The notes: a model not told the origin generated them from the letters alone. 64,000 nucleotides of DNA from Planctomycetota bacterium (GCA_965223265.1 OZ244999.1:7904001-7968000); one strand, 5' to 3'. Numbered from the stretch's first letter, positions 8,916-56,179 are shown. Translations and numbers: made by a program.

Positions 8916-8998
8916 TGCTCACCCTTTTCGTTGCTGCTCAAGGCGTTGAGGCCCGTCGCGATCGCCGCGAGGAGGCCGGGTGGAGAACCGGGGTGCTG

Positions 8999-24841: not shown

Positions 24842-24962
24842 AGACGAAATTCGACCGACTACGCCAGTCCGAGACGAAGGCGGGCTTCCTACGGTTAGGA
24901 CTTTGCGACGAACAGGATGGGCTGCCCGAGCGCCGCGACAGCGCGTCACGACGCTCAGTGTC

Positions 24963-25076
24963 GACAATTATTGTCACACGGCAGCGACAAGCGCCGCCGG
25001 CCGGGCTCGTAAACTCCTCTATTTGTGGAATCTCCGACTTCTCGGAACGACGACCGCGTGAGGCATGCCGGTTGCC
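24963..25076 (+). promoter_or_regulatory. Putative sigma54 promoter plus palindromic upstream activator site for the pilin gene
   Basis: AGGCATGCCGGTTGCC (GG 25062-63, GC 25074-75) and palindrome GACAAT-T-ATTGTC at 24963-24975, about 90 bp upstream. Confidence 0.55.
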
Positions 25077-25147
25077 GATAGATATCCTATACTCCTGCAG
25101 GGCAGTCTTTTTCGACACCCCGAACCGAACCCCATGCGAGGCAGAAG

Positions 25148-25603: not shown

Positions 25604-25788
25604 CGACGATCTCGCTCGTCGATTGATTGCCACCCCCCGGGCGCAGCGGGAAATCATCAAACTCGAGTTGCAAGCGGCGCGACTTGTCGGCAACATCGCG
25701 CTCTGGTGTTCGGCGCGCGGCAGTTCCTGACGCTGCGCGACCCTTTCCGACCCGCGCCGCAGTGCAAAGATCGCCACGCTGAGAAGCC

Positions 25789-26346
25789 ATGCCAAGCGGA
25801 ATGAAGCCGTCAACCTCTGCGCCGTTTCTGCTCGGTTTCTGGTTAGCTGGCAACCTAGCAATCTTCGGTGTTGTCAGCTCTACGTTCTATGGCATCCCAG
25901 TCGCCCTCGAAGTGAACCAGAAGTTGGCCGAACGCGCTGGCTTCGACCCAGATGATGAGGCGGCGCGCAAAAGTAGCCCCATCTGGGTGTTCTCCAGCGA
26001 ACTCAATCGCCTCTTCTTCCACCATTGGAACCGCATTCAACTCGCGATCGGGGTGTTGACGCTGATCGTCCTCCTGGCGCGCTGCCGTTGTCCGGGGGCG
26101 CTCACGTGCGCTGTGCTCGCGCTCGCGGCTGTCGGCGTGCTAGCGTTTTACTTGGAACCGCGACTCGTCGAGCTCGGACGCTCGCTCGACTTCGTGCCGC
26201 GAGAGCCCGAGAGCGAGTCGCTTAAAAAGTTCCATCTGCTGCACAAGATCTACACGGCGATCGCGCTCATCGAGGTCGCGCTCATCGCCGTCGCCTCACT
26301 GTGCGTCTGGATCACCAACCACAAGCGACTGAACGCGGGCGCCTGA
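25789..26346 (+). CDS. DUF4149-like small membrane protein
   Basis: Four hydrophobic segments; LLGFWLAG start and F..LH..Y near the C-terminus. Confidence 0.6.
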   Translation: MPSGMKPSTSAPFLLGFWLAGNLAIFGVVSSTFYGIPVALEVNQKLAERAGFDPDDEAARKSSPIWVFSSELNRLFFHHWNRIQLAIGVLTLIVLLARCRCPGALTCAVLALAAVGVLAFYLEPRLVELGRSLDFVPREPESESLKKFHLLHKIYTAIALIEVALIAVASLCVWITNHKRLNAGA

Positions 26347-26369
26347 TCTCGTTGCGTAGCCTCTACGCT

Positions 26370-26472
26370 CTTCGTGGCCTTCGTTTTCTTCTGTTCGATC
26401 CGTCACGCGATCAGCGATTCCAGGCTTGAGTCTATGCTCCTTCTTGAACAGAAGGTAGCGAAGAAAACGACG
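26370..26472. repeat. Inverted pair of 3x9-bp periodic REP-like repeats
   Basis: CTTCGTGGC CTTCGTTTT CTTCTGTTC (26370-26396) and GAACAGAAG GTAGCGAAG AAAACGACG (26446-26472). Confidence 0.55.
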
Positions 26473-26580
26473 GAAGACCTGCGAACTCTGCCTTTCGATT
26501 TCATAAGTCCGCCCGAATTGCCCTCTCCCCTCGCAGAACAAGTGTCGAAGTTGGGCTGGCTAGGACGAGGCAGCTCAGCT

Positions 26581-29500
26581 CTACTCAGCCGCCTCGAGCT
26601 CTTCCGGACCGTCAGCGTCGAGGAGCACCACGGGTCGACGCGAGACGGCATTGACGTTGCCGCGCAGGTACAGTCGCTCGAAGACCAGCGGCGGTAGTGT
26701 CGGCTGTGCTGAGACCATGGACTCGTCCGGGCCTTGGTCTTCAAGCGCCGGTGGGACGACAAGCAGTCGAGATGCCGTCAGCGCAGCCCCTGGCTCGAAC
26801 ATCTCCGCCCGCTCGGTCGTAACGTCAACGTCAAGGTGCGTCGCTAACAGCGATGCGGTGTCGCCGCCTTGATCCAAAACGAGGATGCCGGGCTCAGTCC
26901 CTGGAGGGACGACGTAGATCGTGCCGGCGCCGCCGACGGACTCGGAACGCGCCGGGTCCTCAAGAAGAACGCCGCCACGCGCCTCCACGCGCCGCAGCTC
27001 GAACTGACTCCACTCGGCGCAGCGGATCAGAACCCTCCCGCCGCCACCGCCGCCCGGTGCGCCTGCGTCGGTGGCGACGACATCACCGCCGCGAGCGACG
27101 ATGCGTCCACTGCCGGACAAACGCTCGCATTCCAGCACGACGCTGCCGCCAGCACCGCCGCCGCCCTGAGACCACGGCGCCCCATCCCCGTCAGCGGCGA
27201 TCACACCGTCCAGGTGTACCTCACCGGCACGGATGCGCACAACACCGCCTCCACGTCCGCGGCGTCCGAACGCTTCGGTCGCCGACGCGCTCGGGAGCCC
27301 GCCGCCGCCAGGAAACGCTGGCGCATCGAATGCATCGAACGGCAAGCTGTCCAAGTCGAGTGTGAACGCGTCGCGCTGCACGTCCGAGGCACCGCCGGCG
27401 ACCGCAACTTGCGGCGCGCCTGAATCCCCGCGCCCTCCCGGTCCGCCGTGGCTTCCACCCGCAGCGGTCGTCGCTCCTGGCGCATCGACACCGCGCGGCA
27501 AGGCGACGGCGATAGAGGCTTTCGCTTCACACCACGGCGCCTCGAGGTCCGTGCCACAAGCTGCGAAGCCGCAGCCGCTGACATCGATCCTGCTTGCGTC
27601 GTCGAGCTCCAATGTCTCGGTAACTTCGAGCACAAGCTCGCCCACCTCGGCGCAGAGTCGGTCGCTCAGCGTCACGTGCGAGCGTTCCAGGGAAAGCGCC
27701 AGAACATGAAGCGGGCCTTCGAGCGCAAGGGTGGTGTCGCGGAGCTCGAGGCGCTGGCGCGAAAAGTCAGTGAAGCGCGCCGGATTCGTCCCCACCGCGA
27801 TCTCGGCGGCATCTCCCAACCCATCGCCGTCACTGTCCGCATCACGTACTGAAGTTCCGAGTCGTACTTCAACGCCGTTGCCGATCCCATCGCCGTCGGC
27901 ATCCTCGTCGCCGTCGGCAACGCCGTCGCCATCGCTATCGGCCCGCAGAGGTTGGTAGCCGATCGCCAGCTCAAGCCCATCGCTGAGGCCATCGCCGTCG
28001 CCATCCGGCACGAGCGGGTCCGTGCCGAGCTCCGCTTCTTCGCGATTGGTAAGACCGTCACCGTCAGGATCTTCGCTGCCGTCGTCGACGCCATCTTCGT
28101 CGGTGTCGTAAAGCTCCGGGTTCGTCATGGTGCTGACAATCTCGTAGGCGTCCTCGAGGCCGTCCCCATCGCTGTCTGCAAGACCGGGGTCGGTGACGAA
28201 ACCGTCACTCCCGGGAACGACTTCTTCGCCGTCGTCAATTGAATCCATGTCGGTATCCGTCTTGGTCGGATCCGAAATCCAGCCGTCAGCGCCCGGAATG
28301 AGCTCTTCAGCGTCATCGATTCCGTCGCCGTCGACGTCATCGTCGATCGTGTCAGGCACGCCATCGCCATCGCTGTCGGCGTCCACCAGCAGTGCAAACG
28401 AGCCGACTCCAGCGACGTTCCCTTGAAGATCGATGCCAACGGCGCTGACGAACAAAACGTCACCAGGGAGAGCGCTCAGCGCTACCTGGTCCTGAAAAGT
28501 AAAGGGCGGCAGCGTGTCGCCGCGGCGCAGCTCGGCGTCGACGAAGAACTCCACGCGCTCGAGGTAGACATCATCGGAGGCACGAGCCGTGAGGGCGAAC
28601 GTCTCGCCGGGCAAAAAGGCGCTACGCTCACTGTCGAGCTCAAGCGTTCCCTGTGGCGCGACGCCAGCTCGATCGCCGCTGCTGAGAACCTGGACAGCGG
28701 AGAACGAACTGCTCTCAGCGGCGACAACGTACTCCTGGCTGAAACTAAGCTGCTCGATACCGCCGTCGTTTGCCGCCACCGAGCCGGCGGGAGTGATCTT
28801 GCCGTCCGGCTCGATCCGGTAGAAGAGCGCGAGCGTGTCAGCGTTCGGCGTGTGCCAGGCCAACTGGTTGCCGCGGACGGCGACAACATCGGCCGGATCG
28901 CCCGGTCGTTCGGGAGCCGCGGTGTCGATCACTTGCAGGTCGGTCGGATCGGCCGCCGAGATTGCAAACAGGCCGGCGGAGCCGTGCGCGACGTAGACGA
29001 ACTCGTCCGTTGCAGCGACATCTTGAAGCGGGCCGGCGGCGACCGGCAGAGCGAACTGTTGGCGCTCGACGATAGAAGTCGGGGTTGACGCGTCGACAAC
29101 GAGGAGTCGATTCGCACTCGGCCGCGTCACATACACCAGCGGCGCGCTGACGGCGAGACGCGTGCCCCCTGAGACACTCATCGAGTCGAGCTCCGTCAGT
29201 CCGCCGCCGGCGCCGCGCGTGAGCACGCGTAGCTGGGTCGTGGTCAGCAGATAGATTGTGCCACGATCCGCGACGACCGCCTCGGCAGTTGCGAGGTCAT
29301 CCCGCGTCTCGACAAACTGTGGGACCGACGGATCCGTCAGACTGAAGACATGGAGACCGTCGCCACCAGCGGCGACGTAAAGCCATTCGCCGTCTGCCGC
29401 GGCGCTGCGAAGATCGCCCGAGAGTTCCTGATCGTTCCGCAACGGAACCGAGTAGAGCGGTACGACGATTTGACGCGTCCGTAGTCGCCCAGTTGTCGTC

Positions 29501-30564
29501 AACACGTAGACGTGGTCGGTGACGCTGGTGGCCACCGCGGCGATGCTCTCAAAGACTTGAACCTTGAACTCAGGAGTAAATGGCGGTGACGACTCGTTGG
29601 GGTTTAGTGGGTCGCTGCCGCCGAATACCTCAGGTCCGTCGAGAACTCCGTCGCCGTCCGTGTCGTTCAGTGCCGGGTCCGTACCGACGTCGTTGACCTC
29701 GCTGGCGTCACCGAGGAGATCGTTGTCCGAGTCGTCATCGTTGGGCGCCGTGCCGAGAAGGAATTCCTCAACGTTCGTCAGCCCGTCTTCGTCGAGGTCA
29801 TCGTCGGCATCCGTTGGATCGTCGGGATCAAGTCCAAACGCCACCTCCCACGCGTCGGCGATTCCATCGCCGTCGCTGTCGAGCGCGATGTCGACGACGA
29901 CAAGAAGCTGCGCCGCCTCGCCGTCCGAGAGCACACGAATCCAGGTCGACCCGACACTCTCGGCGGTAACGAGTCCGCTCGGTGAAACGTTCGCCACACT
30001 CGAATCCATCGACTCGAAATCGACTTCCGATCCGAAGCCGAACAGAAGGACGTCGACGTCGACGCCTATTCGCGTTTCGGCAAGCACCGACACCTGCGCT
30101 GTCGCACCCGACGCGCCCAAGGTGATCGTGTTCGTCCCTTCGGGGCCCACCGCGCGCAGGTTGTAGAGCCGCCCGGCCGCCTCCAACCCCGCGGCATCCA
30201 GAGCGGCTTGGAACCCAAACTCGGCGGTGAGACGGAACGTCTCTGTCACCAGCGCCGCCGCGGGTCCAAAGACCGCTCCGACGTGATCGCGCATGTCGAA
30301 ACGGACCCTGAGCGGCACGTCAGTCGGAAGGCTGTCGAGACGATACCCGGGTCCCGAGCCAACGGCCGTGGGGTGAGATGCGGCTGCCGTGGCGTGGAGC
30401 TCGCGGCGCGGTGGACTGAGGCGGACATCGCCCGCTGCGAGCGCGTCAAACGGACTGACATCGTCCTGCGCGACGAGTGGCGTGGTCGGGGCTAGCGAGA
30501 TCATCGCGAGTGCTAGGAACATCGCCTGAGCCGTGGATACTCTCCTCGTACGTCGCATCGTCAT
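26581..30564 (-). CDS. Large secreted protein: Ig-like, bacterial TSP3-like Ca-binding repeats, LVIVD beta-propeller, Ig-like, more TSP3-like repeats, Gly-rich C-terminal domain
   Basis: Signal peptide ending LVA|Q; about 14 D-x-D-x-D-G-type repeats in two clusters; LYVAAGGDGLHVFSLTDP and VYVAHGSAGLFAISAADP blades; GGSHGG...GGGAGGSV...GGGGGGRV. ATG 30564 overlaps the RHS stop. Confidence 0.85.
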   Translation of the reverse strand: MTMRRTRRVSTAQAMFLALAMISLAPTTPLVAQDDVSPFDALAAGDVRLSPPRRELHATAAASHPTAVGSGPGYRLDSLPTDVPLRVRFDMRDHVGAVFGPAAALVTETFRLTAEFGFQAALDAAGLEAAGRLYNLRAVGPEGTNTITLGASGATAQVSVLAETRIGVDVDVLLFGFGSEVDFESMDSSVANVSPSGLVTAESVGSTWIRVLSDGEAAQLLVVVDIALDSDGDGIADAWEVAFGLDPDDPTDADDDLDEDGLTNVEEFLLGTAPNDDDSDNDLLGDASEVNDVGTDPALNDTDGDGVLDGPEVFGGSDPLNPNESSPPFTPEFKVQVFESIAAVATSVTDHVYVLTTTGRLRTRQIVVPLYSVPLRNDQELSGDLRSAAADGEWLYVAAGGDGLHVFSLTDPSVPQFVETRDDLATAEAVVADRGTIYLLTTTQLRVLTRGAGGGLTELDSMSVSGGTRLAVSAPLVYVTRPSANRLLVVDASTPTSIVERQQFALPVAAGPLQDVAATDEFVYVAHGSAGLFAISAADPTDLQVIDTAAPERPGDPADVVAVRGNQLAWHTPNADTLALFYRIEPDGKITPAGSVAANDGGIEQLSFSQEYVVAAESSSFSAVQVLSSGDRAGVAPQGTLELDSERSAFLPGETFALTARASDDVYLERVEFFVDAELRRGDTLPPFTFQDQVALSALPGDVLFVSAVGIDLQGNVAGVGSFALLVDADSDGDGVPDTIDDDVDGDGIDDAEELIPGADGWISDPTKTDTDMDSIDDGEEVVPGSDGFVTDPGLADSDGDGLEDAYEIVSTMTNPELYDTDEDGVDDGSEDPDGDGLTNREEAELGTDPLVPDGDGDGLSDGLELAIGYQPLRADSDGDGVADGDEDADGDGIGNGVEVRLGTSVRDADSDGDGLGDAAEIAVGTNPARFTDFSRQRLELRDTTLALEGPLHVLALSLERSHVTLSDRLCAEVGELVLEVTETLELDDASRIDVSGCGFAACGTDLEAPWCEAKASIAVALPRGVDAPGATTAAGGSHGGPGGRGDSGAPQVAVAGGASDVQRDAFTLDLDSLPFDAFDAPAFPGGGGLPSASATEAFGRRGRGGGVVRIRAGEVHLDGVIAADGDGAPWSQGGGGAGGSVVLECERLSGSGRIVARGGDVVATDAGAPGGGGGGRVLIRCAEWSQFELRRVEARGGVLLEDPARSESVGGAGTIYVVPPGTEPGILVLDQGGDTASLLATHLDVDVTTERAEMFEPGAALTASRLLVVPPALEDQGPDESMVSAQPTLPPLVFERLYLRGNVNAVSRRPVVLLDADGPEELEAAE

Positions 30565-33500
30565 GGGGCGAATCCTTGCTGTGAGTCGCGATCCCGCACC
30601 GGTTGACACGGAATCCCAGACGTCTCGGACGTTTTGCAGTTGAAGCTCGTCGAGGCGGGAGCATGCGAGCGCGGCTGAACTCCGCCTCGTGCGTTCGACG
30701 CGACGCTCGATCGTTCAGCGCTGCCGCCGAGCGGGTAGAGCTCGAAGAGTCGAGCGCGTACATCCGCGCCGGTGATTTCGCAGGGTCCCGCCGCGCCGTC
30801 GAGGCAGGCGCCAAGGATGTCATGCTTCGACACCACGTTCATCCGAAACGGTTCGAGATAATCCGCCTGCAGGCGCCTCGACACGCCACCGAGTCGACCG
30901 GCAAGACCACGAACGCGCGGTTGCAGGTAGGCGTTCAGTCCGAGTCGCGTGGGGAAGACCCCGTCGTCGGGCGTCAGGTAGCGGCCAATCTGTGGATCGA
31001 AATGGCGCGCACCGACGAGGTGCATGCCGACCTCGAAGTCGTGGTAGTGGCTGCCGAACGTGACGACGTTCTCAACGGTCGAGAAAGCCAAAGGAGATCC
31101 CACGGCGTTGCGGACCGTCGGCTTGCCATAAGCGTCATACGCGACGCTCTCGATGATCGCGGCATCGGCGCCGAGGACGGCACTGACGGAGTCGGAGCTG
31201 TCGTGAATCAAAGCCTCGGTGAACGCCGCGCCGGCCTCAGGTCTGAACACGCGGAACGCGGGGCGCCGCTCGACCTCGCCACTTCGCTTGTAGAGCTCCT
31301 CGAAGATGTACTGCCGCACACTGCCACCGCGGCGCTCTTCGATCAAATCGTCTCCGAAATGGAGGAACGCGAGCTCACCGGTGGGCTGGCGGAAATTCAC
31401 TGGAACGATGACGTTCTTGGCAGTGCGACGTCCGCGCCCACGGAAACGCGCGGCGTCGTGGCAGCCATACGCATCGTACTTGCTGCGCGCCACCGACACG
31501 CCGTCGCGCTGAACATCCAGCAGACGACCGAACGCGTCGTACACGAAGTCGACAGCGTCGGTGCCAACGAAATTCCCTGCGCCATCGTAGGTGAAGAATT
31601 CTTCTTCGTCGATGTCGATGTAGAAGTCACGGAGCTCGCTCACAGCGATGCGGACGATCGAAAAATCGACCTCCAAAAAGCGCCAATTGAAGTTCCCGTC
31701 CGTGAAGAAGACGATTTTCTCGAGCGGTGCCGCCGGAGGCGAACGAGGGTTGAAGACGTTGGGAAAAAAGCTCTTGAGGAAATACGTCGAGTCGTAGCGC
31801 CAGACGTCGCCCCTCAGCTCGGCACTGTGCAGCGGCAATTCGTACTCGCGGAAACCACTGCGATCCCGCCCGTACTCGAACGACCGAAGGAGCTCACCGC
31901 CCGCTGTCGAGTACGTGATCTCGACGAGCTCCCCGGCAGCGTCGTACCCGAACATGCGGTCGATCCCATCCCCGTCGGGCCTCACGAAGGCGACGCCGAC
32001 GCCGTTCCACAGCGACTTCTCACGCAAGAGACCGGAACCGAAGTGCCGGTAGCTCGCCAGCGGTACGCTGGAGTCTTCCAAGCCCGTGACGCGGTTGAGG
32101 CTGTCACGTGCCGCCGTGACGACGCGGCCGTCCGGGTAGCGAAGCCAAAGCCGTGCCCCGGTCAAGTTGTGGTGCGCCTCGACGGAGCGGTTGCCGACGA
32201 GCTCCGAGACCACATTGCCAAAGGAATCGTAGGCCACCTGCACACTGGCGTCGTCGCTCTGGTCGTCCGGGTCGTTGTTGTCAAAGAAGAACGTCGGACG
32301 GCCGAGCCCATCGTACTGAAATCGCTGCAGCGTCGTCCCAGAGATGCCTGCCGCGCGTTCGACTCGGCGCTCCACGACACGCCCACCAGCGTCGAAGGTG
32401 TGTTCGAACCGCGTCCCGTTGCCGTCGACGATCGCTCGCACCGTGCCGTCCGCATCACGTTCGTAATCCGCGAACGAGCCGTCTTCCCAAGTCTTTCGCT
32501 GGACACGCCCGGCTGCATTGTAGGTCAAATCGACACGCCGACCCGTGTCGTCGGTCCAAGCGGCAAGCCGGCCGTCGTCGTCGTATTCGTACGTTTCCTC
32601 GATAAGGCCATCACGGTTGAACGGATTGGTCGTATCGAGAGACGCGCCGCCTTCGCCGTCGCGCCGCAGTTCGTGCTGCGCCAACACCGGACGACGGAGA
32701 TTGTCGTAGCGAAACCGCAGTCGATTCCCAGTCGCGTTCAACTGCGCCAGCTGCACGGCGCTCAAAAGCGATTCGTGCGGCGCCAGTTCCGGATCGTTCT
32801 CGACATTGAGCGATGAACCCTTGGCGTCGCTGATCAGGAGGCGATTGCCGGCTGAATCGAACCTCTGGCGCCAGACGCCGCCAGCCGGATCGACCAAGAC
32901 CTTCAAGCGATTCAACTCGTCGAAGATTCGGACGATGTTTTGCGTCTCACGGAACTGCCCACTGACGTCGTAGTCAGGATCGTCAATCCCGGGAGTCGCC
33001 AGCACGTCCGGCGTCAAGAGTTCGCGAACCTCACGCACCGCATTGCCATTGGCGTCGCGTACATACGTGGTCCGGCTCACCCCGCCGCTCCGAGCTTCCT
33101 CGAGGCGGCCAGCTGCATCGTAAGCCCACTCGCTGACACCGGCGGCGGAGTCGTCCTCCCGCACGACGCGATCACTATCGTCGTACCAGAACTGCCGGCG
33201 ATGGCTTTCGGTCACCGGATTCGCCGCCAAGTCAAGAGCGCCGAACCGCCAGGCGACGGACTCCGCCACTCTGCCGCGCGCGTCGTAGCTCGACGCTCCG
33301 CGCTCGAGAAGCACGCGGCCGAAGTCGGTGGGTGCGCCGCCTGTCGCGGCGCCTGTCGGACTTTCGCCGCCGGCAGTGCCGAAGAAGAATTCATCGGTGA
33401 CATGGCCTTCTACATCGCGAGCGAAGAGATGCGTCGACCCGAGCGCATCGACCGCCGCGATGACGCGGCCAAAGCCGTCGCGCACCTCTCGCTTGCGCTC

Positions 33501-36500
33501 TGCTTCGCCATCGCCGTCGAGGTCGGCTGCGTCAATGGTCTCGACGACGCGACCGGCCGCGTCGCGAAGGAACGTCACCGCATCTTCCTCAGGTGAACCT
33601 ACGCCACGTGCGTGCTGAACGACAAGACCGCGTTCATCGTGAGTCCACGCGTCGTTTCGCCCGGCGGCCAGGTTCTGTAGCTCGACCAAGCGGCCAGCCC
33701 GGTTATAGCGTAGTTCCACCGTCACCGATTCCACGACTCCGTCTTCACCGCCGAAGACTTCTCGAACGATTCGTACGGGCCGACCCAGAAGGTCATACTC
33801 GGCGCTGGTCTCGAGCCAACGGTTGTCGCTGACGAGAAAGCTGACACCGGCGTCCGTGGCGCTGAAGTTCTCAAGCTGAACGAGTTCGAGGTGATCGTCG
33901 GCGTCGTAGAGGAACTGTCGACGATATCTCAGCGGCACCGGCAGACGCTCCTCGACGAGCTGGCCGAGGGCGTTGTGAACCAAGAACCGCTCGTTCCCCT
34001 GCGGATCGACAACGCGGGCTAGAAAGCCCCATACATCGTAGTCAAAACTCGTCACCAGTTCGCTCGCGTCTTCAACGATGCGACGCGCCAAGAATCCGCC
34101 GGTCGAGCCGTCAAGGTCGCCGCCTGGTGTTGTGCTACCGTCGCCCTCGGGATCGTTCTCCGGGTGGTACTCGTAGCGTAGGCTGCGGCCGTCCGCGTCC
34201 TCAGTGCGCGTCACTTGACCAAAAGCGTTGAAACGAGTCTGCCTCACAGATTCTGCACTGCTGCCGTCCGGGCGCGGCGTCGGTGGCAGAACCTCCCGCA
34301 CGATGTTGCCGTGCACCAGCACTTCACTACCGTCACCGTTGAGATCACCAAGGCCAAGGGCGACGCCAGCATGAGCCAACGCGGCAGCCATTTGCTCGTC
34401 GCTGGCGCCGGCGATCATCGCCAGCTGCGCGACGGAAGCGCCTTCCTGATAGTCCATGAAAAACGTGCGCCGAAAATCGCCGGCGACAGCACCAGCGGCA
34501 TTACCGCGTGGCGGAACAACTTCGATGGCAACGCCGTAGAGCGGATCGCGTCGGTACGTTTTCACCGCGACCGAAGGCGTTGAATCGAGGCCCAGGCTCG
34601 CTGCGCCCGGGGCCCCATGCCGTTCTTCCCGCACAAGCCCGTTCTGAGCCGAGCGCAACGGGGCACTCTCGTCGTAGGTGAAGACGACCCGCTCACCGCC
34701 CGGATCAGTGCGAGCCAAGAGAAGACCTTCGCGGCTCCACTGCCAGCGCGTCGCATAGAATGGCGGCGCCACTCCGGGAGGCGGCTGCGCGCGCGAAGGA
34801 TCCCGCGGCCGCACAGCGTCAAGCGTCGGCGATGTTATGACGCGCTCCTCGAGCGGTAGACCGGCGCCGCTCCACGTGAACTCGGTCACGAAACCCTCGT
34901 CAGTGGTGATCGTCGTCATACCCTGAGCGCCGAGAAGAAACGATTCCAGTTCAGCCGCGCTGTCGCTCTCCGCGCCAGAGGAGCCGCCACCAAAGAGTTC
35001 ATACGCGAACTCCACTGAACCTGAGACCGCGACACCGGAATCGTTGGTGCCGCCCCACTGCTGAGTGACGACGCGGTCGAACGCCGCCGCGCTGGGGTCG
35101 TCCTCATAGAGAACGGTCACTCGGGGTAGATCGGTGGACGACGTTTGACGCGGATCGATGATCTGCGTCAGGTTATGGTTGGATCGCTCGTCGGCAAAGC
35201 CGGTCGTATAGATGTACTCGGTGCGCTTACCGGCCGGAAAGTCGTTTCCAGATGGCGTCCCGACCACTGCCGGGCGTGTCACCGCAACCAAGTCACCACG
35301 AGAGTCGTACTCAAACACGACGCTGCGGCCAGTAAAGTCGGTGACCGATTCCACGCGTCCACGACTATCGTGCTGGTAGACGATCGTACGCCCCAGCGTG
35401 TCACGCACAGTATCGATCAAGCCGTCGCCACCACGCGCGAAGGTTAACTGGTTGCCACTACGATCGCTGATCGATTCCAAACGGCCGGCGGTCCCTGTCG
35501 CGTCCAGCGGGTGGTAGCGATAGCGTGTGCCGTCCGACAATCGTTCGACATAAAAACCTTCCGAATCGACGAAAAGTCGGGCGAATACACCGATCGGCGA
35601 CACGAAGCTGCCGCTCGAGCTGTCGAGAAGAAACTCGTCGAAGCGGCCGGCGCCGTCAGCGCGCACCACGTTGCCCGGCACAAAAGCTGAGAGCAGACGG
35701 CGATCCTCATACTCGTGCTCCCAGTTGTGACCGAGCGAAGCTTCGAAACGATGGCGACTCTCGTAGCGCCGGCGCAGTCGATACGGCAGCCCCCGACCGG
35801 GGATCTCGAGGTCGATCTCGTCGAGATAGAACTCTCCGGAGTGAGAATAGACCTGAAAACCCGCGACGTGCGAGGCGGAGCGCGCGCCGACTTCATTCCA
35901 GCCGGGCCGGGCGAATCGAAAACCACCGCTCACCGAGCCGACCTCGCCAAGGGGCGGGCCGCGGCGCGAAGCGATGTAAAAGCCGCCCGTCGACACTTGC
36001 GCAGAATCCAACAGTCGCACGGCAAGACGATCGTCGCTCACCAGACCTGGCTGCATCTCCACGAAGCCGCCGTGCGCGGCACGATACTCGAAGAGCGGCA
36101 CCAGCTCGCCGGCGCGCGCGTGGAGTTGTGGTAACGCGAGCTCGAGCCCGGTCAGCTGCACTTGCACCGGGAGGATCGAAATCGCGCCGAGCGGATGCAG
36201 CGCGTCCGACACGCGACCCGGCAAGGCGTCGAGATGCGGCGCGCTGAGCGCGATCGTCATCGCGTCGGCGCCGCCTGGGAGCGTCGCGCCGCCAGCGGCG
36301 AGCTCGAACCTCAGCCCCGGCACCGCTTCGAGGGTGGCGAGAACGTCGCGCCCCGGAAAGAGCGAGACGCTCCTGCGCCGCGGCGAATCCACTTGGCTAC
36401 GCTCGAGTGACAGCTGTCCGACCCAATTGGACCGGCCCGCAATGGTCTCGGCGCGAAACCGCGACCCGAACGTCTCGGTGGGGTCTCCGACTTCCACCAA

Positions 36501-39104
36501 CCCGACACCGACCGGTGCAGCGGCGATCACGAACGCGCCGTCGGTGCCGGTCGTCACTGCAAGCCCTGGTTCTCCGGGCCATCCGACTAGGCGAACGCTC
36601 ACACCGGCGTACGGCTCGCCGCGCTCGTCTGCAACGAATCCTGACAAACTGGTATCGGTGGCGGCGCCCTGAGCTACGCCACGCAGGGTGAAACGAACGG
36701 GGTCGACTCCGGCACGCGAGGCCTGAATCGTGCTCGTGGACTCCTCGCCAGATGGCACCGAGGCGCGAACCGACGCAACGCCCATGGCGTCGGTCGTGCG
36801 CACAGTGAGGCGCACGCCGTCGATCAACGCCGGGCCGTCAATCACTCGGAAAGCGATGCTCTCGTCGGCAAGCTCGCTGCCGAACCGGTCGAGCACGCGC
36901 ACACCGAAAGCCTGCGGCGCCTCACCACCGAGCGCCGCCGTCTGATGCCGGGGTCCATGCGGCACGAGCACCGTGTCTAAACTTGGAATCACCTCGATGA
37001 CGTAGGACTTGGGGCTGGCGAGGACGCCGACAGCGCGTATCTCGACGACGTGGCTGGCGGCCCCAGCACCGACGCCCGGCGAGAGCGAGACCGACGCCTC
37101 CCCGGCGCCGTCCGTGTCCACCTCGGTGCGCCGTTCACCTCCCGGGAATGAGCCATCGCCGCCGAGCACATCGAAGATGACAGGGCGCCCAACAAGCGGC
37201 GTGCCCGCGGCGCTATCGAGACGCACCGCGAGCAACTGTGGCAAAGGCGTGCCCGCATTGACGGTGCGCACCGGTGCACCCAAGAGCACGATCGCCGGGG
37301 CAGGATCGTTGCCGCGGACGACACGGAGATTCCGTGCTGTCTCGTTGCCCCGCCCGTCCGTCGCAACCAGCGCCAGATCGTTCGTACCGATGGCGAGAGG
37401 AACGTCGACGGTGAACGTGTCTCCTGCGATCGCCGCGACCACACCAGCGACCGTCAAGTCGATCGCCGCGTTCTGGCGCGGCGCGCCGCCAAGGTCCCAT
37501 ACGCGGCCCGAGATGCGAACGTTCGTCTCTTCGGTGCTGTGCCCGGAGGGTGATTCCAGAGCTGTCGATGGGGGGAAGAGTACCTCGACGCGCGGCCCGG
37601 CTGTGTCGACCACGAGTGAGCGTGATGTGTGAGCCTTGAGTGTGCCGGACTGCGCGGTCGCGACGACGTCGTGGACGCCAGCTGGAAGAGAAAGCTCCAT
37701 CTGCCAGGTGCTGCCAGTGACCTGCGCGCTCAACCCATTCACCATCACGGCACTGCCAGACGGGGTCACGCTTCCCGACATCAGAATCTGACTGGAAGCG
37801 ACGACGATCGATGGATCGCCGGACGGCGTGTCGATCGTGATCACCGGCAAGGTGTCGTCGACGTCGACCGGAATCGAAAGCTCGCCACTGTTGCCGACGG
37901 GGTCGCGAGCCACGACGAGTATCGCTTGCGGTCCCGGCGCCAGACGCACGACGGCAGAGAAGCTGCCGGCACCATCGACGGTGGCCCGCACCCCGTTGAT
38001 GTCGACCGTTGCCGCCAGGTCGTCGACGTCTCCAATCACGGTGACGACACCGCTGAGAAGATTCGCCCCCGCCGTCGGCTGGCTCACGGTCAAACCGGGA
38101 GGTGTCGTGTCCGGATCCGAGACGAGCGCCGGCTCGAGTGTGGGCAACGGCTCACCGGTGATCGGGTCCGTCACTTCGCCAGGTTCGACGCGGACGACCC
38201 GAACGGTCTCCACAGCGCTGCCCATGGCATTGGTCGCCTCGACGACGATGTCGCTATCGCCAAGCGCGACGTCGATGAGTGTGGAGAACGAGCCTTCGTG
38301 CGCCACGGGCGTCCCGTTGACCGTCAGCGCCGCGTCGGCGTCGGAGACGACGCCAGAGACGAGGACCATAGCCGAGGAGACTTCGGCGCCGTTGGGAGGG
38401 GAGACCACGTCGAGTAGTGGGGCTCCATCGGCGCCGGCGCGCACGCGCACCGTCACCTCAGTTTCGACGGTGCGAAAGAGCACTGACACCACCGCCTCGC
38501 CGACTCCTGTCGCGGTCAAGACTCCGAGCGCGTCGATCTGAACGACCTCCGGTTGCGTGCTCGAAAACGACACCGTCTCGAGGTCTTCCACCGGCGTCGT
38601 CGTGCCCTCGTCGTCAACCGCAACGATGCTCAAATGCAGCGTCTCGCCGACGACGTGAAAGATCACCTCACCTGGGACGACAAGAAGCTCCGCGGGAGGG
38701 TCGCGGCCGTTTTCGCACGGCAGATCAAGTAGCGGGTCGGTCGTCGGGTCGACCCCGAGCCCGGGATGCGGCGGTGGCGGCGCCGGGCTGTTGCTCACGA
38801 AGAGCCAATTGAGAAGATAAATGCCGTCGGAGATGTCGAGATTCTCCGAATCGTTCGCGTCGCACGCGTCGGAGCATGCGACCGGGTCAACGTTGCCGAC
38901 AAAGAGAAAATTGAGTAGGAAGATCGCGTCGCTGATGTCGACGTCATTACTGTCGTTGCAATCGGCACGCACGAACACTCCCTGCGCCTCGACCGTCAAA
39001 GGCGTGGCCCAAAGAGCCAGCAGCAGCGCGGCGAAGCTGAAGCGCTGCAGAAGTCTCAGCCCAACAAACTTTTTCGACGCAGCGGGGCGCGCACCCGCCG
39101 ACAC
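30561..39104 (-). CDS. Giant secreted RHS/YD-repeat protein with N-terminal dockerin-like domain, tandem Ig-like domains, carboxypeptidase-regulatory-like domain, DUF6531 and RHS core
   Basis: Signal peptide ending VEA|Q; FVRADCND...DISDAI..L.FLF...DACDAND...DISDG; DUF6531-like SGEFYL...DL.IPGRGL...R.Y.S...LGHNW.H; many YD repeats; RHS core YDAYG...ARHFDPQIGRYLTPD. Start uncertain (ORF open to 39299; GTG 39104 chosen). Confidence 0.9.
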   Translation of the reverse strand: MSAGARPAASKKFVGLRLLQRFSFAALLLALWATPLTVEAQGVFVRADCNDSNDVDISDAIFLLNFLFVGNVDPVACSDACDANDSENLDISDGIYLLNWLFVSNSPAPPPPHPGLGVDPTTDPLLDLPCENGRDPPAELLVVPGEVIFHVVGETLHLSIVAVDDEGTTTPVEDLETVSFSSTQPEVVQIDALGVLTATGVGEAVVSVLFRTVETEVTVRVRAGADGAPLLDVVSPPNGAEVSSAMVLVSGVVSDADAALTVNGTPVAHEGSFSTLIDVALGDSDIVVEATNAMGSAVETVRVVRVEPGEVTDPITGEPLPTLEPALVSDPDTTPPGLTVSQPTAGANLLSGVVTVIGDVDDLAATVDINGVRATVDGAGSFSAVVRLAPGPQAILVVARDPVGNSGELSIPVDVDDTLPVITIDTPSGDPSIVVASSQILMSGSVTPSGSAVMVNGLSAQVTGSTWQMELSLPAGVHDVVATAQSGTLKAHTSRSLVVDTAGPRVEVLFPPSTALESPSGHSTEETNVRISGRVWDLGGAPRQNAAIDLTVAGVVAAIAGDTFTVDVPLAIGTNDLALVATDGRGNETARNLRVVRGNDPAPAIVLLGAPVRTVNAGTPLPQLLAVRLDSAAGTPLVGRPVIFDVLGGDGSFPGGERRTEVDTDGAGEASVSLSPGVGAGAASHVVEIRAVGVLASPKSYVIEVIPSLDTVLVPHGPRHQTAALGGEAPQAFGVRVLDRFGSELADESIAFRVIDGPALIDGVRLTVRTTDAMGVASVRASVPSGEESTSTIQASRAGVDPVRFTLRGVAQGAATDTSLSGFVADERGEPYAGVSVRLVGWPGEPGLAVTTGTDGAFVIAAAPVGVGLVEVGDPTETFGSRFRAETIAGRSNWVGQLSLERSQVDSPRRRSVSLFPGRDVLATLEAVPGLRFELAAGGATLPGGADAMTIALSAPHLDALPGRVSDALHPLGAISILPVQVQLTGLELALPQLHARAGELVPLFEYRAAHGGFVEMQPGLVSDDRLAVRLLDSAQVSTGGFYIASRRGPPLGEVGSVSGGFRFARPGWNEVGARSASHVAGFQVYSHSGEFYLDEIDLEIPGRGLPYRLRRRYESRHRFEASLGHNWEHEYEDRRLLSAFVPGNVVRADGAGRFDEFLLDSSSGSFVSPIGVFARLFVDSEGFYVERLSDGTRYRYHPLDATGTAGRLESISDRSGNQLTFARGGDGLIDTVRDTLGRTIVYQHDSRGRVESVTDFTGRSVVFEYDSRGDLVAVTRPAVVGTPSGNDFPAGKRTEYIYTTGFADERSNHNLTQIIDPRQTSSTDLPRVTVLYEDDPSAAAFDRVVTQQWGGTNDSGVAVSGSVEFAYELFGGGSSGAESDSAAELESFLLGAQGMTTITTDEGFVTEFTWSGAGLPLEERVITSPTLDAVRPRDPSRAQPPPGVAPPFYATRWQWSREGLLLARTDPGGERVVFTYDESAPLRSAQNGLVREERHGAPGAASLGLDSTPSVAVKTYRRDPLYGVAIEVVPPRGNAAGAVAGDFRRTFFMDYQEGASVAQLAMIAGASDEQMAAALAHAGVALGLGDLNGDGSEVLVHGNIVREVLPPTPRPDGSSAESVRQTRFNAFGQVTRTEDADGRSLRYEYHPENDPEGDGSTTPGGDLDGSTGGFLARRIVEDASELVTSFDYDVWGFLARVVDPQGNERFLVHNALGQLVEERLPVPLRYRRQFLYDADDHLELVQLENFSATDAGVSFLVSDNRWLETSAEYDLLGRPVRIVREVFGGEDGVVESVTVELRYNRAGRLVELQNLAAGRNDAWTHDERGLVVQHARGVGSPEEDAVTFLRDAAGRVVETIDAADLDGDGEAERKREVRDGFGRVIAAVDALGSTHLFARDVEGHVTDEFFFGTAGGESPTGAATGGAPTDFGRVLLERGASSYDARGRVAESVAWRFGALDLAANPVTESHRRQFWYDDSDRVVREDDSAAGVSEWAYDAAGRLEEARSGGVSRTTYVRDANGNAVREVRELLTPDVLATPGIDDPDYDVSGQFRETQNIVRIFDELNRLKVLVDPAGGVWRQRFDSAGNRLLISDAKGSSLNVENDPELAPHESLLSAVQLAQLNATGNRLRFRYDNLRRPVLAQHELRRDGEGGASLDTTNPFNRDGLIEETYEYDDDGRLAAWTDDTGRRVDLTYNAAGRVQRKTWEDGSFADYERDADGTVRAIVDGNGTRFEHTFDAGGRVVERRVERAAGISGTTLQRFQYDGLGRPTFFFDNNDPDDQSDDASVQVAYDSFGNVVSELVGNRSVEAHHNLTGARLWLRYPDGRVVTAARDSLNRVTGLEDSSVPLASYRHFGSGLLREKSLWNGVGVAFVRPDGDGIDRMFGYDAAGELVEITYSTAGGELLRSFEYGRDRSGFREYELPLHSAELRGDVWRYDSTYFLKSFFPNVFNPRSPPAAPLEKIVFFTDGNFNWRFLEVDFSIVRIAVSELRDFYIDIDEEEFFTYDGAGNFVGTDAVDFVYDAFGRLLDVQRDGVSVARSKYDAYGCHDAARFRGRGRRTAKNVIVPVNFRQPTGELAFLHFGDDLIEERRGGSVRQYIFEELYKRSGEVERRPAFRVFRPEAGAAFTEALIHDSSDSVSAVLGADAAIIESVAYDAYGKPTVRNAVGSPLAFSTVENVVTFGSHYHDFEVGMHLVGARHFDPQIGRYLTPDDGVFPTRLGLNAYLQPRVRGLAGRLGGVSRRLQADYLEPFRMNVVSKHDILGACLDGAAGPCEITGADVRARLFELYPLGGSAERSSVASNARGGVQPRSHAPASTSFNCKTSETSGIPCQPVRDRDSQQGFAP

Positions 39105-39728
39105 GCAGCCGGTGATGCCAAGGCGCTCGATACTCTCCGGCGGTGCGCTCTGCGTCGCACTGCTTCGCCATGTTCGAGAGACGACGGGCTGGACCCAAAC
39201 GTTGTGCACAACTTTTCGCGGCACGCTAGCGCCCAGAGCTCTCACGGCGGCGAGAGATCCTCGACTTGAGCGCTGCGACAGACATGCCGTAAGGATCACG
39301 GCGACGTCTTTGCTCGCGTCCTGTTAAGTCAATTTGTCGACGGAGAGTGTGGGAAAGAGACGAACGACCCAAAGGCCGCCATTTTACCCGCCAGGTGCTG
39401 AAATAGCTGCTCTCACCCGCCATGCCCGGCGCGTCCTCGCGTGCGGCGCGGGGGCGCACCGGGAGCGCGCCTCGTTCGTGGACGAATCTTGTTGTCCAAG
39501 GGCTTACGCTGCCGTAGGATACGTCGTGTCGTGCAGTCCCCGACCTCTGCGTCCGGGCGGCCTAGGCGGCACCGAACGAAAAACGTACGCTCTAAGGTCA
39601 CGCGAACGGCGCCGGTACACCTGCAAAGGTGGACCTGGACGCGGGGTCACGTGCGTGTCTATGGGCGCGTCAGAAGTGAACTGAAGAAAAACAACTGCAG
39701 AAGCTGTCGACAGGACGACGGCTGCTAA

Positions 39729-39797
39729 CAGCCTGTTGAAAAAGTGCTTCGAGCCGAAAACTGGTCTCTTCGGCCGAATGACTTTTTCAACGGGCTG
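39729..39797. mobile_element. 69-bp MITE with 17-bp terminal inverted repeats and CTAA target-site duplication
   Basis: CAGCCTGTTGAAAAAGT / ACTTTTTCAACGGGCTG (16/17 match), flanked by direct CTAA at 39725-39728 and 39798-39801. Confidence 0.8.
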
Positions 39798-40025
39798 CTA
39801 AACCGAAGAGAAGAGAACGATCGCGGCGGCCACAGCGTCGTCGCGAGAGAGGACCCAAGAGTTTGGGGAGTCGTCTGCTCCCAGCGGCACGTGCCCTCAC
39901 TGCGAGGCTCTCATCGCGAGGCGGCGCGGCAAGCTTGGCGGACGTCTATTCAGGCTACGGCGGCCGCAGCTCATGGGTAACCGCGAGCGGTAAACCGTCG
40001 TGGATGGCAAGCAAAGGGACGAGGG

Positions 40026-53130: not shown

Positions 53131-56179
<3,049 letters not shown>

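Follow-up and report, generated by a model that had tools for sequence, protein, structure and literature searches.

The window analysed here, a stretch of 64,000 nucleotides from a member of the Planctomycetota, contains two neighboring minus-strand open reading frames, at 30561..39299 and 26581..30609, that encode very large proteins (4174 residues combined); all features located below lie on this strand. The first gene (30561..39104), identified by its ORF, its translation, and its Pfam and NCBIfam matches, encodes an RHS/YD-shell protein of 2847 residues when read from a GTG at 39104. This start is uncertain, with alternatives at 39245 and 39299, and the database copy of the protein (P0123) begins 47 codons upstream of the GTG. 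Its first 40 or so residues (38985..39104) plausibly form a Sec signal peptide, recognized by eye from a basic n-region followed by FSFAALLLALWATPL and ending ...LTVEA/QG (site VEA/QG), where AQG is kept in the consensus of 17 orthologues. The second gene (26581..30564), identified in the same way and through its homologues (P0004-P0018), encodes an exported protein of 1327 residues from an ATG at 30564, called the partner below, and the predicted signal peptide ends ...LVA/QDD. The stop codon of the RHS gene and the start codon of the partner gene share an ATGA (30561..30564), and the same ATGA occurs at three orthologous loci (L002, L003, and L004). Because the two genes overlap in this way, there is no room for a small ORF between them. 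Both the overlap at 30561-30564 and the export of a second, 1327-residue protein had been proposed in the original prediction and are seen in the sequence.

Neither protein was seen to carry an anchoring signal, whether a lipobox, a transmembrane segment, or a sorting motif. A promoter and terminator scan of 25000-40200 returned nothing above chance: no promoter-like site, and 11 terminator-like ones where 12.5 were expected. An ORF of 125 residues that overlaps the pair (30446-30823) matched no family. Among the 36 neighboring ORFs scanned in the 64-kb window (10 + 26; the ORFs at 24792-25157, 121 residues, and 39334-39684, 116 residues, fall outside the scan), no T6SS, PAAR, VgrG, SpvB, or TcA family was detected, in keeping with the earlier statement that T6SS/PAAR/VgrG and Tc genes are not found nearby. 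Nor does the RHS protein or its partner contain a trafficking marker (PAAR/VgrG/T6SS, the SpvB part of TcB, or LXG); both carry a Sec-type signal only.

The RHS protein begins with a module containing two Asp/Asn-rich loop motifs (residues ~46-135; 38700..38969) and invariant cysteines, namely C49, C77, C81, and C130 in an alignment of 17 RHS orthologues (A1). This N-terminus had been described as dockerin-like; the motifs do show such a resemblance, but Dockerin_1 gave no Pfam match within residues 40-230 even at E<=1, and the likeness, as judged from the sequence, is one of motifs only. An Ig-like stalk follows (residues ~140-905; 36390..38687), in which Pfam identifies Big_2-like and Glucodextran_B Ig domains (the latter at 4e-26), together with Big_1 (18.3 bits) and a weak CarboxypepD_reg match (23 bits against a cut-off of 32.3), both under their cut-offs. 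The stalk region can be aligned with that of stalk-bearing relatives (L006, L007, L009, L012, L014, and L029). Between the stalk and the shell lies a predicted beta-sandwich (residues 909-1049; 35958..36380), modeled by AF2 as strands with pLDDT of 70-86 (model residues 20-160), for which there is no Pfam family; lenient Pfam and PDB searches returned nothing, and the Atlas gave weak TTR/CarboxypepD_reg-like leads only, in clusters below 0.9. This pre-shell sandwich co-occurs with partner genes across loci. A low-confidence linker of 20 residues (model residues 161-181, protein residues ~1050-1070) stands just ahead of the shell.

The DUF6531 and YD-repeat shell itself (residues ~1079-2655; 31140..35870) is identified by Pfam (RHS_repeat at 4e-47, DUF6531 at 3.6e-10), by NCBIfam (TIGR01643 at 9e-34), by PDB sequence matches, which are to Rhs effectors only, and by an AF2 model with a pLDDT of 85.1. 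These matches and the signal peptide bear out the predicted exported RHS/YD protein of about 2850 residues. In a Foldseek comparison of the shell model, ranks 1-12 are all Rhs cores (E from 5e-44 to 1e-36), ranks 13-29 are the bacterial teneurin-like protein (TLP; 9IFO, rank 13) and teneurins (ranks 16-29), and Tc BC structures occupy ranks 30-48. Full-length orthologues (A1, n = 17) are 36-47% identical across 94-97% of the length, and the shell is kept in full in all 17. A pseudogene reading was rejected on the basis of at least 16 full-length orthologues with 36-47% identity that retain the whole frame of 2750-2850 residues.

Beyond the shell, the Rhs-associated core is degenerate (residues 2656-2755; 30840..31139). 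TIGR03696 matches over profile positions 1-60 of 76 only, at 32.9 bits against a cut-off of 32.5. The Arg-x-x-Asp-Pro start is kept (R2700 and FDP at 2702-2704), both DPxG motifs are absent, and the core closes with a clade-specific PGLPGxxGE...RRA..LEPFR. In a gapless hand alignment with canonical relatives, a near-invariant glycine (G2736) takes the second Asp position of DPxG...DPxG. The window protein has no DPxG...DPxG bipartite aspartyl-protease cleavage site, and in the absence of these motifs the usual release step is absent as well. The 92 residues that follow LEPFRM (30564..30839) form an unconserved tail; Pfam finds no family in residues 2728-2847, and no C-terminal toxin domain family among them. 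All orthologues in A1 end soon after the conserved ...GARHFDPxLGRFLT..PLxLNGYLxPGLPGLPGEV.G.GS..RRA..LEPFRV, with tails of low complexity that vary in length and sequence. DPxG is missing from the best 21 matches (E<=3e-18) of an exhaustive search across 1.84 billion representatives, all of which end 39-119 residues after FDP. In the window protein, 146 residues follow FDP, and this stretch has no DPxG either. The canonical RDPxG...DPxG is back from P0260 on (rows checked to P0270), except in P0262, which is without the motif; eight of the ten motif-bearing rows extend at least 200 residues beyond FDP, and the other two extend 92 and 133.

No small immunity gene lies directly downstream, where the RHS stop codon overlaps the start of the exported partner. 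The original prediction had noted the missing toxin end and immunity gene; the observation is true of the window and extends to the whole clade, which lacks DPxG and has unconserved tails. That the window protein and its clade are disarmed, with toxin end and cleavage motifs absent, appears well supported by these comparisons. The small size of the tail alone is no proof of harmlessness because, according to PMC13018210, the bacterial teneurin-like protein of solved structure has a toxic C-terminal piece of 92 residues.

The partner is also modular. Toward the N-terminus, a beta-rich region and an Ig domain of the Big_2 type (residues ~55-224; 29893..30402) were assigned from Pfam and AF2, with the Ig domain at 134-224 predicted at pLDDT 71-92 and residues 1-130 predicted poorly; an HMM of this region (Nterm) has matches in partner-like ORFs of 8 loci. 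The TSP3 calcium-binding repeats start with a block (residues ~229-320; 29605..29880) that shows invariant D/E/G columns at 229-312 in the partner alignment (A2) and an NCBIfam MtsD match at 223-278. Next comes a seven-bladed LVIVD-type beta-propeller (residues 332-625; 28690..29571), supported by Pfam LVIVD (25.8 bits against a cut-off of 20.2) and by an AF2 model of 28 strands with pLDDT of ~90. Foldseek relates this model to G-beta and YVTN-type seven-bladed propellers and puts 1L0Q, an S-layer protein from an archaeon, at rank 2; the 49 rows listed include no teneurin and no Tc structure. A Big_7 Ig domain (residues 638-727; 28384..28653; Pfam and AF2), whose HMM (big7) has matches in partner-like ORFs, leads into a second TSP3 array (residues ~730-925; 27790..28377), with the best TSP3_bac stretch at 832-853 (2e-17 for the protein) and a CglD match at 727-888. 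The beta-propeller and calcium-binding repeats anticipated by the original prediction were thus recovered. The Gly-rich domain, likewise anticipated there, forms the C-terminal region (residues ~935-1327; 26584..27762), in one copy here and in two to four in relatives; lenient searches gave no Pfam family and no PDB relative for it, and only a partial NCBIfam AgmC_N match at 1031-1183 was obtained. The Atlas search for this domain and the pre-shell sandwich yielded, as a weak lead, G8 in 41% of one cluster. From its modules, the partner looks like a calcium-dependent adhesin.

The pairing of the two genes is real. The synteny proposed as a check in the original prediction was found at three of the four orthologous reference-genome loci (L002, L003, and L004), where a partner orthologue lies directly downstream; with the window included, all four clade loci that have the partner share the ATGA overlap, at 38-43% protein identity. 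At the remaining locus (L001), which is closest to the window in the tree, no partner orthologue follows the RHS gene; a lectin/dockerin-like protein and a different propeller/FN3 giant of 2841 residues are encoded there instead, which indicates that this specific partner is not obligatory. Contig-length fingerprints link two RHS orthologues to partners (P0132 with P0005, and P0135 with P0018); these 2 of 15 partner homologues are no measure of linkage frequency, the protein lists being incomplete and the homologue list (P0004-P0018) missing the L002 and L004 partners. A partner search restricted to the propeller returned 6 proteins and no new links to RHS orthologues.

More broadly, a partner-like ORF adjoins the RHS gene at 15 of 77 loci. 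Among the 55 evaluable loci, it is found at 12 of 13 with a stalk-bearing RHS protein and at 3 of 42 with a stalk-less one (Fisher p = 1.3e-8, uncorrected for relatedness). The stalk-bearing genes with such neighbors come from Planctomycetota, Pseudomonadota, Nitrospirota, Myxococcota, and Verrucomicrobiota. The C-terminal halves of the partner-like proteins vary freely, with Big_5 arrays, VWA, PPC, or Gly-rich domains, and five of the proteins (L029, L014, L011, L006, and L007) have no detectable propeller; the shared part is therefore the N-terminal Ig/TSP3 module, not the propeller.

Searching with the same sequence patterns retrieves relatives that are conventional armed toxins, whose ends vary. 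Of 48 complete RHS ORFs from these loci aligned through the core, 35 have DPxG and tails of 21-1098 residues, all at least 140 except one truncated tail of 21, and the four orthologues have no DPxG and tails of 37-81 residues. Eight armed-relative tails that were tested show no similarity to one another, and one contains a PT-HINT domain. At seven of the eight stalk-bearing armed-clade loci examined, the RHS gene is separated from the partner gene by ORFs of 119-376 residues. The Ig stalk also occurs in distant armed relatives from other phyla, which keep DPxG and have unrelated C-termini followed by small ORFs and then partner-like giants. Variable toxin C-termini plus immunity genes had been named in the original prediction as a pattern that would count against it; distant relatives, though not the toxin-less clade, show this pattern in part, with variable C-termini followed by small ORFs. 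A 26-row RHS alignment was used, and a shell tree was computed with FastTree from 47 rows, 30 loci with incomplete shells being left out. In this tree, the toxin-less clade has a long stem and is not joined to the main armed-plus-partner clade (deep node support of 70), and no armed group is singled out as its sister. The case for a single origin of the pairing comes from the stalk that the groups have in common and from the similarity of their partners.

Taken together, the data favor, with a probability of about 0.55, a model in which a toxin lineage has turned into a putative two-protein surface module, a coupled pair of an uncleaved cage and an adhesin-like partner. The two genes would constitute one translationally coupled operon, with both giants Sec-exported and acting outside the cell. 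The RHS protein belongs to a small, mostly planctomycete clade that has kept the Ig stalk and YD shell and has lost both DPxG motifs, the variable toxin domain, and the immunity gene, all of which relatives keep. With these features lost, it would probably be an uncleaved cage, empty or nearly so, that now serves as a structural piece. The partner family may be an ancient accessory that displays or anchors Sec-exported RHS toxins with a stalk, or binds their targets, and in the toxin-less clade the pair may now act as a joint, non-toxic surface or adhesion module. Contact between the two would be likelier through the RHS stalk and the N-terminal Ig/TSP3 module of the partner than through the propeller. 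To place the pair at the surface, rather than among released proteins, is a guess. A joint non-toxic role outside the cell, as originally envisaged, remains the best reading in view of the clade-wide loss of toxin features, the conserved neighboring partner, and the partner-like giants beside stalked relatives.

The proteins could instead be independent adhesins that share a promoter and are co-expressed for attachment, with no contact or mutual dependence. We regard this as unlikely, although both are built from common surface-protein modules, another giant replaces the partner at L001, and the C-terminal halves of partner-like proteins are free to vary. Against it, the ATGA overlap persists in four of four partner-bearing clade loci despite the divergence of the proteins, the presence of partner-like genes goes with that of the RHS stalk across at least four phyla (12/13 versus 3/42 loci), and armed loci keep the partner beside the RHS gene despite immunity-like ORFs in between. 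The locus might also still encode a toxin system, in which the cage carries a small conserved peptide (the 45-residue PGLPG...LEPFR segment or the 92-residue tail) as its cargo, the target organisms are such that the producer needs no immunity, and the partner delivers or binds. The tail size of 92-119 residues is close to that of the toxic 92-residue domain described in PMC13018210, stalk-sharing armed relatives also have partner-like genes, and the shell is fully conserved in 17 orthologues. This possibility is nevertheless improbable, given that both DPxG motifs, and with them the usual release step, are absent in the window protein and the best 21 representatives, that the tails (39-146 residues after FDP) differ in sequence, are of low complexity, and in the window protein contain no Pfam family, and that the ATGA overlap leaves no space for an immunity gene.

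A still less probable arrangement, which we consider very unlikely, is that of a split teneurin-like superfold, in which the propeller of the partner would bind the shell at its plug end, the position of the in-chain NHL propeller in teneurins and their bacterial relatives, to give a 1:1 machine. The order of parts in the RHS chain (Ig/TTR-like stalk, beta-sandwich, and 20-residue linker before the shell, with no propeller of its own) would fit this arrangement, as would the propeller of the partner and two RHS proteins (P0187 and P0201) with weak LVIVD-like matches N-terminal to the shell in the same chain. However, Foldseek places Rhs cores above the TLP and the teneurins; FN-plug, TEN_NHL, and TTR_TEN are not among the families listed for the RHS protein, whereas P0226, a true teneurin-like protein, scores for them; the propeller is seven-bladed and G-beta/YVTN-like, with no teneurin or Tc structure in its 49 listed rows; and five partner-like proteins are without a propeller. 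The teneurin-like anatomy put forward in the original prediction is not upheld by these results: the shell is nearest to classical T6SS-type Rhs cores, the propeller is a generic seven-bladed one, and the Foldseek check suggested at the time ranked classical cores ahead of teneurin-like entries.

In comparison with canonical Rhs toxins (8QJA, 7Q97, and 8H8A; Sec-exported RHS), the window protein has in common DUF6531, the RHS repeats, its best shell match, and the Arg-x-x-Asp-Pro core start. It differs in the absence of DPxG...DPxG, a toxin domain, and an immunity gene, and no delivery marker occurs in the scanned window ORFs; the window system is further set apart by its Sec signal with the long Ig stalk that follows and by a conserved giant partner gene overlapping the stop. 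TLPs, as described in PMC13018210 (BiTLP, PDB 9IFO), resemble the window protein in being Sec-exported with Ig/TTR-type N-terminal domains before the YD shell, and resemble the window system in having no known delivery machine. They are described there with a polymorphic C-terminal domain of ~15 kDa that is cleaved and lies inside the shell, and with a small immunity gene directly downstream; the main text places them in six phyla, Planctomycetota not being among these. In the loss of DPxG, the toxin-less clade is like metazoan teneurins and unlike bacterial TLPs as portrayed in PMC13018210. A toxin role seems to have given way, in this clade, to a structural or adhesive one.

The window protein also differs from TLPs in having no FN-plug and no in-chain NHL propeller, and its shell is nearer to classical Rhs cores. 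FN-plug_TEN1-4 is not among the families of the RHS protein at E<=0.01, and neither TEN_NHL nor another propeller family is present in it, whereas the positive control P0226 scored 3.3e-06 and 7e-17 for FN-plug_TEN1-4 and TEN_NHL, respectively. TEN_YD-shell is not in the Pfam list of the window protein; the families precomputed for P0123 and its orthologues do include PF25023. The propeller of the window system resides on a second protein, is of a different type, and has 7 blades. Tc (ABC) toxins, with a TcB-TcC cocoon and a giant TcA, likewise place an RHS cocoon gene beside that of a very large partner, and their cocoon and partner are connected through a propeller. Unlike in Tc toxins, no SpvB or TcA family is found in either protein or the scanned window ORFs, Tc BC structures rank at 30-48 only, the cocoon is a single chain without a toxin or cleavage site, and the partner is composed of Ig, TSP3, and propeller parts rather than being TcA-like.

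Most of what is known of RHS/YD cages concerns their use as toxin containers. The 2026 paper on bacterial teneurin-like proteins (PMC13018210) counts it among the open questions how Sec-exported cages come to be displayed, targeted, and opened when neither a T6SS nor a TcA is present. The locus offers a candidate accessory protein family for stalk-bearing RHS proteins, and a natural clade in which toxin, cleavage site, and immunity gene are gone and cage and accessory appear to be kept under selection. Such a clade would be a bacterial counterpart of the toxin-to-adhesion-receptor change behind animal teneurins and would let a non-toxic role of the YD cage be studied in bacteria. A bolder version, possible but doubtful, would make the partner family the missing accessory (for display, targeting, or delivery) of stalked, Sec-exported RHS toxins in at least four phyla, docking on the stalk, and the planctomycete clade an independent replay of the origin of teneurins, its cage having lost cleavage, cargo, and immunity and been retained with the accessory as a cell-surface device for adhesion or recognition. 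If the two proteins do not interact, the locus would represent an ordinary co-expressed adhesin pair, one member being a decayed toxin scaffold.

Searches of the open-access literature found no report of an RHS gene that has an LVIVD/TSP3 giant as its partner, none of an RHS clade without a toxin, and no description of LVIVD/YVTN, CglD, or AgmC families as RHS-gene partners. The partner does have module-level counterparts. It has TSP3 arrays in common with the myxobacterial gliding proteins CglD and AgmC, to which its matches are partial and well below the NCBIfam cut-offs (79.4 bits against 400 for CglD, and 37.5 against 275 for AgmC_N), so that what is shared, as far as the profiles can tell, is modules and not family membership. 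With LVIVD/YVTN propeller surface proteins it shares LVIVD repeats, the propeller fold, and export, and with the archaeal S-layer protein 1L0Q the succession of a seven-bladed propeller and an Ig domain.

Two long ORFs lie on the minus strand of the window, that of the RHS protein at 30561..39299 and that of its partner at 26581..30609. If translation begins at the GTG at 39104, the RHS protein comprises 2847 aa and has a Sec-signal-like N terminus, in which basic residues are followed by FSFAALLLALWATPL and VEA/QG; the true start is uncertain, since the database copy (P0123) begins 47 codons farther upstream. Starting at the ATG at 30564, the partner comprises 1327 aa, and its signal peptide ends in LVA/QDD. 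The RHS stop codon and the partner ATG overlap as ATGA at 30561-30564. The original prediction of a very large Sec-exported RHS protein whose stop overlaps the start of a second exported protein, with no small immunity gene following, was thus confirmed at the same position. Several antisense ORFs of 200-737 aa (e.g., 30603-32816, plus strand) lie opposite both giant genes; they were not taken as genes because they are expected by chance at 63-67% G+C.

Pfam recognized RHS_repeat (4e-47), Glucodextran_B Ig domains (4e-26) and DUF6531 (3.6e-10) in the RHS protein, and NCBIfam a YD_repeat_2x match. The NCBIfam Rhs_assc_core match was marginal and truncated (positions 1-60 of 76; 32.9 bits versus a cut-off of 32.5). 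The proposed Ig array, DUF6531 and YD repeats were therefore recovered, whereas the dockerin-like N terminus was not recognized by Pfam even at E<=1, and the carboxypeptidase-like domain (CarboxypepD_reg), like Big_1, stayed under its cut-off.

A search of 5.8 billion proteins returned 18 close RHS relatives (P0124-P0141; 36-48% identity), 16 of them with 94-97% query coverage and lengths of 2717-2807 aa; the few with a source name are all from Planctomycetota. A decaying pseudogene is ruled out by the many full-length orthologues. In a 17-row orthologue alignment, conservation spans the full length, including four invariant cysteines of the N-terminal module, and all rows end shortly after the motif '...GARHFDPxLGRFLT......PLxLNGYLxPGLPGLPGEV.G.GS..RRA..LEPFRV', which is followed by short tails varied in sequence and length. 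Canonical relatives read '...YDPxxGRFLQRDPxGY.DGMGLYAYV.NNP.N..DPxGL' at the equivalent site. This sequence contains the bipartite DPxG-X18-DPxG, described in PMC13018210 as the aspartyl-protease site of RHS proteins and bacterial teneurin-like proteins. By gapless hand alignment, the first DPxG position corresponds to D2713-V2716, unconserved in the clade, and the second to G2736-G2739, of which G2736 is near-invariant; the core-opening Arg and FDP are retained (R2700, F2702-P2704).

The same picture emerged when RHS residues 2440-2847 were searched exhaustively with phmmer against 1.84 billion representatives. The best 21 non-self matches (E<=3e-18) all lack DPxG and terminate 39-119 aa past FDP, the window protein having the longest remainder, 146 aa. 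The canonical motif is back from P0260 onward (rows down to P0270 checked): 8 of the 10 rows carrying it have at least 200 aa past FDP and two have 92 and 133; the motif is absent from P0262, and P0259 is ambiguous. Together with a C-terminal tail that matches no Pfam family, the missing DPxG and short ends point to a clade that is small, with about 20 clusters at 50% identity, and toxin-less throughout, in agreement with the "disarmed" state originally claimed.

Patterns derived from the orthologue alignment, scanned against one genome per species (GTDB), identified 77 loci, four of which (L001-L004, from Planctomycetota or Planctomycetia MAGs) encode full-length RHS orthologues. In a FastTree phylogeny of 47 shell sequences, the window protein and these four form the toxin-less clade with a support of 100 and a stem of 0.83; an armed sister group, that is, one with DPxG and a variable C-terminal end, was not singled out. 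Co-location of the pair held at L002, L003 and L004, where the start of a partner orthologue (at L003, 746 aa up to the contig end) overlaps the RHS stop as ATGA, preceded by purine-rich stretches. It did not hold at L001, which is closest to the window in the shell tree: the region at L001 18577-29137 encodes a 641-aa lectin/dockerin-like protein (weak Dockerin_1 match) and then a 2841-aa giant that carries Lactonase/YNCE-type propellers and FN3 domains, but no LVIVD partner. Two metagenomic protein pairs lie on equally long contigs (P0132 and P0005, 18,895 bp; P0135 and P0018, 145,080 bp), and 13 other partner homologues have no such RHS match in protein lists from which the L002 and L004 partners are known to be absent. 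A homologue search restricted to the propeller added nothing useful on partner–RHS linkage.

More distantly, armed RHS proteins with a partner-like giant were found at L006, L007, L009, L012, L014, L029 and L075, the sources being Ectothiorhodospiraceae, Nitrospirales, Rhodobacteraceae, Pseudomonadales, Arenicella, a 'Deltaproteobacteria' MAG and Pseudohongiella. These proteins share 27-32% identity with the window protein from Ig stalk to core, and all carry DPxG and a further 185-307 aa. Eight armed tails compared with one another had no mutual similarity at E<=1e-3, and one contains a PT-HINT pretoxin domain. Downstream of each of the seven genes, on the same strand, is a giant protein whose N-terminal part comprises a signal peptide, the conserved segment '..C.V..LNR..QV..DG.W.L.NVP', Big_2 and TSP3 repeats. 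It usually continues with an LVIVD propeller and Big_7, and ends in a variable part (Big_5 arrays, CarboxypepD_reg with VWA, or Gly-rich domains). At L006, L007, L011, L012, L014, L029 and L075, RHS gene and giant are separated by one or two ORFs of 119-376 aa (one LRR, one DsbA-like, the rest without a family), which occupy the position expected of immunity genes; at L009 the gap is only 29 nt. The two ORFs at L007 17638-18599 (140 and 162 aa, no Pfam family) look like diverged copies, as expected of duplicated immunity genes. Variable toxin C-termini with putative immunity genes, which the original prediction had named as contrary to its proposal, thus occur in distant relatives only, and the clade is without them.

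Several loci depart from the usual layout. At L075 8378-18044, stalk (1034-aa ORF, 8378-11482) and shell (ORF from 11469) are two overlapping ORFs, through either a frameshift or a real split. Tandem same-strand RHS gene pairs occur at L030 9257-23351 and L046 9299-22151. The RHS proteins of L013, L017, L028, L033, L034, L047, L062 and L071, mostly from Acidobacteriota (a Dehalococcoidia MAG for L034, a Gemmatimonadota MAG for L071), have no plain DPxG in the core, yet have remainders of 148-329 aa, and may represent additional non-canonical types; Trp and Gly are extremely abundant in the L047 tail.

Partner-family profile HMMs and Pfam, applied to all 77 loci, placed partner-like ORFs next to the RHS gene at 15, downstream at 13 (L002-L004, L006, L007, L009, L011, L012, L014, L026, L029, L072, L075) and upstream at two (L020, L023). 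The propeller (with Big_7) and Gly-rich parts are separate adjacent ORFs at L020 2-3927, L023 1862-5649 and L026 15483-19562. Among the 55 evaluable loci (22 were left out as cut or with <2 kb downstream), a partner-like neighbour is present at 12 of 13 whose RHS protein aligns to the window stalk/sandwich, versus 3 of 42 without such alignment (Fisher p = 1.3e-8, a value that overstates independence, as the loci are mutually related). Presence of a partner-like gene follows the RHS stalk.

The partner matches TSP3_bac, LVIVD, Big_7 and Big_2 in Pfam, and shares modules with the gliding adhesins CglD and AgmC (NCBIfam) at scores far under the cut-offs. Its homologues (P0004-P0018) are 1735-2176 aa long; 14 of the 15 align to its first ~1000 residues at 36-43% identity. 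The Gly-rich domain, present once in the window partner, occurs in two or three copies in the homologues; it matches no Pfam family and has no PDB relative. In an AF2 model of residues 1-760 (21-row alignment; mean pLDDT 83.8), the first 130 residues are poorly predicted; they are followed by an Ig domain (134-224), a TSP3 stretch, a seven-bladed propeller of 28 strands (332-625) and a second Ig domain (638-727). The claimed beta-propeller and Ca-binding repeats were thus found. Foldseek against the PDB matched the model to generic seven-bladed propellers (G-beta subunits), with the archaeal S-layer protein 1L0Q (tandem YVTN propeller and PKD domain) at rank 2 and no teneurin or Tc entry among the 49 matches listed.

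The RHS model (residues 890-2089; 26-row alignment; mean pLDDT 85.1) runs from a beta-sandwich (909-1049) through a low-confidence linker of ~20 aa into the repeat sheet. Its Foldseek matches are led by T6SS-linked Rhs cores (ranks 1-12; E 5e-44 to 1e-36), followed by the bacterial teneurin-like protein 9IFO (rank 13; 6e-32), the T6SS effector RhsP (8H8B and 8H8A, ranks 14-15; 1e-31 to 1.5e-30), teneurins (ranks 16-29) and Tc BC cocoons with one teneurin entry and mosquito SGS1 (ranks 30-48); TM-scores are low for all because the shell was modelled in truncated form. No teneurin-specific family is among the Pfam matches of the RHS protein, whereas a genuine teneurin-like control (P0226) scored for TTR_TEN1-4, FN-plug, TEN_NHL and TEN_YD-shell. 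The RHS protein therefore falls outside the teneurin-like family as defined in PMC13018210, by FN-plug, NHL and YD-shell in a single chain. A propeller supplied in trans to complete a teneurin-like superfold, as the split-teneurin proposal held, finds little support, because the partner's propeller belongs to another type and is missing from several partner-like proteins. The functional parallel holds for animal teneurins, which have likewise lost cleavage motif and toxin; bacterial teneurin-like proteins, unlike the window clade, keep both. P0187 (3449 aa) and P0201 (3336 aa) are RHS proteins in which weak LVIVD-like propeller matches precede the shell in the same chain, and both functions may be naturally fused in them.

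RHS proteins as a rule have DPxG, a variable end and an immunity gene, and the lack of all three in one well-supported clade therefore represents loss. For a locus with two export signals, a gene overlap, clade-wide loss of toxin features and a pair that recurs as such or in like form, the simplest account would be an ancestral three-part module (stalked RHS toxin, immunity gene and accessory giant) minus its toxin–immunity cassette, whose removal would have brought the RHS stop onto the partner start. The partner family would have begun in an accessory role for Sec-exported RHS toxins, in their display, anchoring or target binding. Both proteins would work jointly outside the cell, probably in calcium-dependent adhesion or recognition, and the RHS stalk is predicted to contact the partner's N-terminal Ig/TSP3 module, because those parts co-occur.

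Possibly, the RHS protein still carries cargo in the form of a small conserved peptide, as the 92-aa C-terminal domain of the solved teneurin-like protein is toxic (PMC13018210); however, the cleavage site is missing, the tails are unconserved and there is no space for an immunity gene. The two proteins may also be independent adhesins, co-expressed and nothing more. The different neighbour at L001 and the freely varying C-terminal halves of the partners are consistent with this possibility, but the conservation of the ATGA overlap and the tie of partner presence to the stalk argue against it. The component parts are already known. Neither the pairing of an RHS gene with an LVIVD/TSP3 giant nor a toxin-less RHS clade was found described in the full text of open-access papers, and the conserved pairing and clade-wide disarming appear undescribed.

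Consistent with the claim that T6SS, PAAR, VgrG or Tc genes are not nearby, no T6SS, PAAR, VgrG, SpvB or TcA family was detected among 36 other window ORFs (the scan left out two short ORFs, 24792-25157 and 39334-39684). The pair is surrounded by housekeeping and envelope genes, with dnaA, dnaN, gyrB and gyrA at 50-60 kb. The row of gyrA, gyrB, a DciA-like gene, dnaN and dnaA (50342-59801, minus strand) coincides with G+C down to 0.54-0.57 and a cumulative GC skew minimum near 56-58 kb, and the chromosomal replication origin region probably lies within the window. Divergent from the RHS gene, a plus-strand gene (40026-43190) encodes a 1054-aa protein that combines a Ser/Thr kinase domain with HEAT repeats and has a weak NCBIfam match, far under the cut-off, to the MADS6 defence kinase.
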